A stretch of 2,519 nt of DNA, taken from Escherichia coli (GTDB taxonomy: Bacteria > Pseudomonadota > Gammaproteobacteria > Enterobacterales > Enterobacteriaceae). This document shows, piece after piece, positions 1 to 501 of the stretch; within the stretch, counting starts at the first letter, position 1; every line of letters starts with the position of its first letter. Made by a program: the position numbers and the translations under genes. Location: the NCBI RefSeq assembly GCF_003334355.1, contig NZ_QOWP01000073.1; one strand, given 5' to 3'. The notes below the pieces were generated by a model. The model worked only from the letters and a program-made list of their open reading frames with translations. It was not told the DNA's origin and did not search any database.

Positions 1-116
1 TGAATCTGAGGCAGCACCTGGCACGGCTGGGACGGAAGTCGCTGTCGTTCTCAAAATCGGTGGAGCTGCATGACAAAGTCATCGGGCATTATCTGAACAT
101 AAAACACTATCAATAA
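1..116 (+). CDS. insB: IS1 transposase InsB (InsAB'), C-terminal fragment; 5' part lies outside the window
   Basis: Frame 3 (first full codon at 3) translates as [37 protein letters not shown] with stop TAA at 114-116, which matches the InsB C-terminus as I recall it. Not in the ORF track because it is a partial ORF running off the window edge. Confidence 0.8.
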
Positions 117-131
117 GTTGGAGTCATTACC
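109..131. repeat. IS1 terminal inverted repeat (right end, ~23 bp)
   Basis: AATAAGTTGGAGTCATTACC region is the reverse complement of the IS1 end GGTAATGACTCCAACTTATT. The IR boundary is taken from recalled IS1 structure; the partner IR is outside the window. Confidence 0.7.
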
Positions 132-501
132 CTCGCTTCAGAATTGTATTCGTGTGCGTAATATTGAAACAAAACTCGTCACTGGAAAAGTAGGTACTCA
201 AAACACACAACTGCTTGGTAATACGCTTACTGGAAGCACTGCCGCCAAAGGCGTTGGCGTACTCATTGAAGGTTTAGCAACCAGTAAAAATCCGCTAATG
301 ACATTAAAACCTAATGATACGAATTCTGTTTATATAGATTATGAAACCGAAGATGACACCTCCGATGGGGTTTACCCTAATCAAGGTAACGGCACATCAC
401 AGCCTCTTCATTTCCAGGCAACATTAAAGCAAGACGGGAATATTGCTATCGAACCCGGCGAATTTAAAGCCACCAGTACTTTCCAGGTAACCTATCCCTG
501 A
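132..501 (+). pseudogene. yadC: 3' remnant of a chaperone-usher fimbrial adhesin/subunit gene (yadC-like), truncated at its 5' side by the IS1 insertion
   Basis: Frame-1 translation from 132 gives a ~123-aa Ser/Thr/Gly/Asn-rich polypeptide ending ...TSTFQVTYP, then TGA at 499-501, a typical fimbrial subunit C-terminal beta-strand. It has no native start or signal peptide; the only start-like codon (TTG at 118) lies inside the IS1 inverted repeat. The 113-nt spacing to panB fits the K-12 yadC-panB arrangement as I recall it. Confidence 0.65.

Follow-up and report, generated by a model that had tools for sequence, protein, structure and literature searches.

Does a 127-codon open reading frame (ORF) that starts inside an insertion sequence and ends at the stop codon of a truncated fimbrial gene represent a gene, or is it a by-product of the insertion? 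This question is raised by a piece of Escherichia coli DNA (contig NZ_QOWP01000073.1 of assembly GCF_003334355.1), the whole 2,519-nt stretch of which was analysed here and is called the window. The initial annotation had described positions 100-501 as a chimeric ORF created at the junction of IS1 and yadC. We conclude with high confidence that this region is the right-hand IS1 junction with the 3' third of yadC, that the TTG frame across it is incidental and most likely without meaningful expression, and that any product would be non-functional, unstable and cytoplasmic.

The chromosomal context of the junction is that of K-12. Positions 132-2445 were compared with E. coli K-12 MG1655 and showed 0 mismatches in 2314 nt, and this core, 100% identical to MG1655, is also common to many other strains. 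Colinearity with K-12 breaks exactly at 131/132 and at 2445/2446. Between the two breaks lie the 3' remnant of yadC (132..501, plus strand), intact panB (615..1409, plus strand) and intact panC (1421..2272, plus strand), both supported by the ORF listing as well as by MG1655 identity, and the last 100 nt of rpnC (yadD; 2346..2445, minus strand), where MG1655 identity stops at 2445. The order yadC-panB-panC-rpnC is as in MG1655, so that the remnant keeps its native synteny, and panB and panC are the native downstream neighbours which fix the chromosomal context. The remnant corresponds to K-12 yadC nt 870-1239 at 100% identity and retains the native stop codon. The unique DNA lies between partial IS sequences, 131 nt of IS1 on one side and 74 nt of IS10 on the other, and in this the window resembles a short-read contig ending in repeats; such an ending does not make the two IS junctions less real.

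The first 131 nt of the window (1..131, plus strand) form the right end of an IS1 of the IS1A type and consist of the 3' end of insB/insAB' (1-116) and the right inverted repeat. They are identical (131/131, 0 mismatches) to the last 131 nt of the complete 768-bp IS1A of strain BE104, a reference copy that carries a 9-bp target duplication, and matching records are annotated by PGAP as IS1A family transposase. The right inverted repeat ends ...GGAGTCATTACC at 131, and IRL and IRR align as expected. The IS1 boundary is thus 131/132. A complete IS1 would measure 768 bp between target-site duplications of 8-9 bp, and of such an element the window contains the last 131 nt. The initial annotation had asked whether the boundary might lie elsewhere, with a broken frame; the tip is at 131 and the frame is continuous across it, so the boundary is where it was placed. 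The native TAA of the insB/InsAB' transposase (114..116, plus strand; frame 3 reads ...HYLNIKHYQ and then the stop) sits 15 nt from the IS1 tip at 131, and the PGAP transposase CDS in BE104 has the same geometry. A single base, G117, separates this stop from TTG118, and the stop does stand immediately before the start, as had been noted.

Position 132 is nt 870 of yadC, the third base of codon 290. From the TTG in the IS1 right inverted repeat, the ORF (118..501, plus strand) reads TTG GAG TCA TTA CC/C TCG CTT... and stays in the frame of yadC as far as the native stop at 499-501. IS1 therefore contributes 4 codons and 2 nt, and native YadC residues 291-412 follow from ORF residue 6 on. The coordinates and the TTG start of the 127-aa ORF at 118-501 agree exactly with the ORF listing, and the rest of the ORF is, as had been claimed, the C-terminal region of yadC in frame. 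Of three small corrections to the initial annotation, two concern this frame. Its "first ~5 codons" do come from the IS1 terminal repeat, but their number is really 4 2/3; and the coordinates of its span, 100-501, hold, but the frame of TTG118 is open only from 103, with a TAA at 100-102 preceding it. That the ORF is not a native gene is borne out by its composition, an IS1 tail with 131/131 identity joined to yadC from nt 870.

How the frame arose can be read from the IS1 ends. Both ends carry AAGTTGG 11-17 nt from the tip, and the last 14 nt contain no stop codon. With this motif at the same offset in both ends and no stop after it, any junction in one of the three phases gives a TTG-initiated fusion frame. 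The adjacency of stop and start is likewise produced by the IS1 sequence at every copy, and therefore is not a selected feature of this locus. We propose that IS1 integrated at yadC nt 869/870, or that an IS1-mediated deletion ended there; the 370 nt of yadC that survive are a pseudogene remnant. The phase of the junction happens to fit here, which is why an ORF finder reports 127 codons. The feature is of an already known kind, an IS1-truncated pseudogene with an incidental in-frame TTG. It amounts to textbook IS inactivation leaving an in-frame remnant that is picked up by an ORF finder, and it carries little biological weight. For annotation, the appropriate labels are yadC pseudogene fragment for 132-501 and IS1 end for 1-131, rather than a 127-aa hypothetical protein.

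The surroundings of TTG118 were examined for expression signals. Anti-SD pairing upstream of TTG118 amounted to -0.3 kcal/mol, a value equalled or bettered by 74% of all window positions; for comparison, panB had -4.1 and panC -8.7 kcal/mol. The in-frame GTG154 and ATG298 were also without an SD sequence (+0.2 and +0.7 kcal/mol). Neither an RBS nor efficient upstream translation into the start, one of which a bona fide translated ORF would have, was found for the chimeric frame. A scan for sigma-70-like promoters by consensus hexamer matches (threshold, at least 9/12) gave no site in 1-550. It found 1 site, TTGCCC-16-TAAAAT with an upstream TG, at 551..578 on the plus strand ahead of panB, where 1.3 were expected in shuffles. 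This promoter-like site is a consensus match only, and it suggests that panBC need not rely on read-through from IS1 or yadC. The yadC remnant has a GC content of 42%, and such AT-rich DNA could hold weak intragenic promoters missed by a simple consensus scan.

Hybrid promoters, with the -35 in the IS end and the -10 in the flank, are on record for IS1 (Prentki et al. 1986, as listed in PMC9330008). Like flanking DNA activated by an IS, the window has an IS end directly upstream of a formerly internal coding sequence, and the element is oriented such that it could read outward. Unlike such DNA, it has no -35/-10 pair over the junction. The hexamers 16-18 bp downstream of TTGGAG (118-123) are AGAATT, GAATTG and AATTGT, none of which is TATAAT-like by eye, and a hybrid IS1 promoter was rejected because no -35/-10 pair with a spacing of 16-18 bp spans the junction. 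To our knowledge, no complete outward promoter has been described in IS1, in contrast to IS150 or IS10 with its pOUT. Native transcription of the yad operon starts at the yadN promoter, which H-NS silences (PMC13245861). IS1 now stands between this promoter, upstream of yadN, and the yadC remnant, and the promoter itself has possibly been deleted.

If the chimeric ORF were translated, its product would be a truncated adhesin. In intact YadC, the domain PF00419 spans residues 265-411 and model positions 21-150 of 151; in the chimeric ORF, only model positions 50-150 of 151 are matched (E 2.5e-8), which leaves roughly two thirds of the pilin domain. With the cut at residue 290, the signal peptide, the entire lectin domain and approximately the first third of the pilin domain are lost. 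The earlier description of a signal-less pilin-domain fragment was right about the signal, but only about two thirds of the domain is kept. The N-terminus of the chimeric ORF is not hydrophobic, with a maximum Kyte-Doolittle value of 0.49 vs 2.32 for the signal peptide of YadC. YadC has its cysteines at 254 and 295, which we take to form the conserved disulfide of chaperone-usher pilins, and the chimeric product keeps only Cys295. A functional yadC would encode a full-length 412-aa protein with signal peptide, lectin domain and complete pilin domain, and the window does not encode such a protein. A PDB sequence search with full-length YadC gave no match at E<=0.01. The chaperone-usher pilin fold needs donor-strand complementation assisted by a periplasmic chaperone. 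A cytoplasmic fragment without the first strands of a chaperone-dependent fold is expected, if made at all, to be unfolded and degraded.

The junction was also compared with others of the same type. Complete genomes and other assemblies yielded 15 distinct IS1/yadC junctions, the window included, in which the IS1 tip lies 900, 760, 726, 667, 637, 611, 483 (twice), 482, 476, 460, 409, 364, ~358 and 330 nt from the panB ATG. The TTG was in frame with yadC in six of the 15, where five (1/3) were expected; for the first 11 junctions, 5 were in frame (binomial p 0.29). Selection for in-frame fusions was rejected on this count. In-frame TTG fusions were also present in BE104, L16-131, NCCP12480 and WP7-S17-ESBL-04, and in ten complete genomes the equivalent remnants carry a PGAP pseudogene label ("incomplete; missing N-terminus", for example with "partial in the middle of a contig" for those of BE104, NCCP12480 and WP7-S17-ESBL-04). 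Like the yadC remnants left by IS1 in BE104, NCCP12480 and WP7-S17-ESBL-04, the window has an IS1 tip abutting the 3' part of the same gene, followed by panB and panC. Unlike them, its exact junction in its own orientation was not found in the searched collections, and the window shows the right IS1 side only. The collections covered were 5,426 complete E. coli genomes and PLSDB plasmids, searched by megablast, and JGI metagenome contigs and GTDB species representatives, scanned for the exact pattern. A look-up of the exact 127-aa product returned no recorded gene with exactly that product, and no paper came up in a full-text literature search combining yadC with IS1. Given these searches, the junction of the window is a private event, and probably a recent one.

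Four of the 15 junctions fall within about 8 nt. Besides the window, these include WP7-S17-ESBL-04 (locus L003, 2536/2537), in which the IS1 tip lies at the same yadC nucleotide as in the window but in the opposite IS1 orientation (…GGCAGCATCACC/CTCGCTTCAG). In locus L013 the junction lies 7 nt further on than that of the window, and in NCCP12480 (locus L002, 2631/2632) 6 nt further on, in a yadC allele of 80% identity. With 15 junctions spread over ~570 nt, the chance of one exact coincidence is ~0.17. There may be a local IS1 target hotspot at the 9-mer CTCGCTTCA. A one-event origin of the window and WP7-S17 junctions through an IS1-mediated inversion was considered and rejected: the IS1 end that abuts a given outer flank cannot be exchanged by replicative inversion or by recombination between IS copies, and we infer that the two strains represent independent uses of the target.

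A reading in which the ORF is expressed would need ribosomes at TTG118. They could be supplied by low-level termination-reinitiation from the InsAB' stop TAA114-116 to TTG118, on IS1 mRNA or read-through mRNA, and the signal-less pilin fragment so made would be a kind of "proto-gene". A stop 1 nt from a start is a geometry able to allow low-level termination-reinitiation without an SD sequence, and the window resembles translationally coupled gene pairs in having stop 114-116 and start 118-120 one nucleotide apart. IS insertions do switch on downstream transcription and translation, in cases of IS150, whose outward promoter is of the sort that creates "proto-genes" (PMC11101190). External transcription is reported to run into IS1, in that transcripts from upstream genes can enter the element and pass through insAB' (PMC12428005), and read-through RNA across the junction from genes upstream of IS1, outside the window, is possible. 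Against this, the promoter of IS1 itself is described as "extremely weak" and InsA-repressed (PMC12428005), and InsAB' needs a -1 frameshift which, according to the same article, crediting Chandler and co-workers, is made by ~2% of ribosomes (PMC12428005). With such a frameshift on a weak, repressed transcript, few ribosomes terminate at 114-116, and the only ones arriving near TTG118 would be the rare ribosomes frameshifted into insB. Unlike coupled pairs, the window thus has an upstream frame that depends on a rare event and a poor start, a TTG without an SD sequence. Reinitiation at such a TTG would pass on only a small fraction of the terminating ribosomes. Moreover, the flank offers no -10 to pair with an outward IS1 promoter motif, the product would be without a third of its only domain and without an export signal, and in-frame fusions are not enriched among the independent junctions. 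We therefore consider reinitiation improbable, and weaker than the initial annotation implied, although the 1-nt geometry on which it rested is correct. That a fragment made in this way should also have some activity is more improbable still.

Two further readings are less probable still. The contig could have been wrongly joined, or have ended, at repeated IS sequence, so that the IS1/yadC junction would be an assembly artefact; a 2.5-kb piece with a partial IS on both sides has typical short-read contig ends, and neither IS junction occurs in any complete genome searched. Yet the break lies exactly at the canonical IS1 tip, the complete genome of WP7-S17-ESBL-04 has an IS1 tip at the same yadC nucleotide, and contigs ending inside repeats still report true repeat/unique junctions. 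The IS10 break, too, is exactly at the tip of the element, adjoining a 9-mer close to what we take to be the target consensus, and we see very little room for an artefact. As for expression of the remnant from the internal GTG154 or ATG298, giving a small protein with its own function, gene callers do report products of 115 aa (182 blocks of the collection) and 67 aa (577 blocks). These calls are automatic and stem from many independent truncations of yadC, whose upstream breakpoints differ and involve IS1, an IS3-family element and IS66; neither start has an SD sequence, and PGAP treats such remnants as pseudogenes. Of the readings weighed, this one has about the smallest chance of being true. 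The remaining reading, an incidental frame at an IS1 junction, agrees with the initial annotation, which held a silent junction artefact to be the more likely explanation, and to this the missing SD sequence and promoter, the truncated signal-less domain, the chance-level frequency of in-frame fusions, the absence of a recorded gene and the PGAP pseudogene calls all conform.

The loss of yadC itself has consequences for the strain. With its tip adhesin destroyed, and perhaps further parts of the operon lost, the strain is very unlikely to produce functional Yad fimbriae. IS1 is bordered on its other side by folK, yadN or the chaperone gene in approximately nine of the 15 junctions, which means that most or all of the upstream yad operon is gone there. 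At least 15 distinct IS1 junctions fall in the 3' half of yadC (loci L002, L003, L005-L010, L013 and L022-L031, yad region upstream of panB), and the gene is also truncated by IS3-family and IS66 elements. Its GC content is 40% vs 53-55% for panB and panC. An IS1 end in the same orientation near the 3' part of yadC was found in ~21 of 5,426 genomes, against ~13 expected from an IS1 density that averages ~13 copies per 5 Mb in these genomes; this is no clear gene-level excess, the figure being a rough back-calculation which ignores clonal inheritance and not a test. It is doubtful that the 3' half of yadC is a preferred landing and deletion-endpoint zone for IS1. Should an excess beyond chance exist, loss of Yad fimbriae would be recurrent and possibly selected in E. 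coli lineages, with IS1 as the tool. IS1 ends in yadC may be of interest to studies of fimbrial repertoire evolution and of H-NS-bound, AT-rich IS targets.

Directly 3' of the yadC stop, the native K-12 sequence forms a perfect 16-bp stem-loop (505..541, plus strand) with a predicted folding energy of -30.4 kcal/mol (z -7.8; 0/200 shuffles were as stable). It has no U-run on either strand and was not scored as an intrinsic terminator. Situated between the yad operon and panB, it is probably the 3' end, or a stabilising structure, of the yad transcript.

At the other side of the window, 74 nt of an IS10 outside end (2446..2519, plus strand) follow the colinearity break and carry the 3' portion of RNA-OUT, which is encoded on the minus strand. 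The terminal sequence CTGATGAATCCCCTAATG... at 2446 is presumably that of the IS10 outside end. A partial match to RNA-OUT (RF00240) at 2491-2519 on the minus strand (model positions 42-70/70, E 0.0029) confirms IS10 and its orientation. The element cuts rpnC (yadD) at 2446 and severs the last 100 nt of the gene from the rest. The 9 bp before IS10 are CGCTGGGCG, which resembles what we take to be the IS10 target consensus, NGCTNAGCN. This IS10/rpnC junction was present in no complete E. coli genome searched, and in XL10-Gold IS10 lies elsewhere in rpnC. A second mechanical chimeric ORF, of 51 codons, occurs here at 2346-2501 on the minus strand. It consists of 19 IS10-derived codons and the last 32 of rpnC, its ATG lies inside IS10 within the RNA-OUT region, and it mirrors the finding at the IS1 junction.
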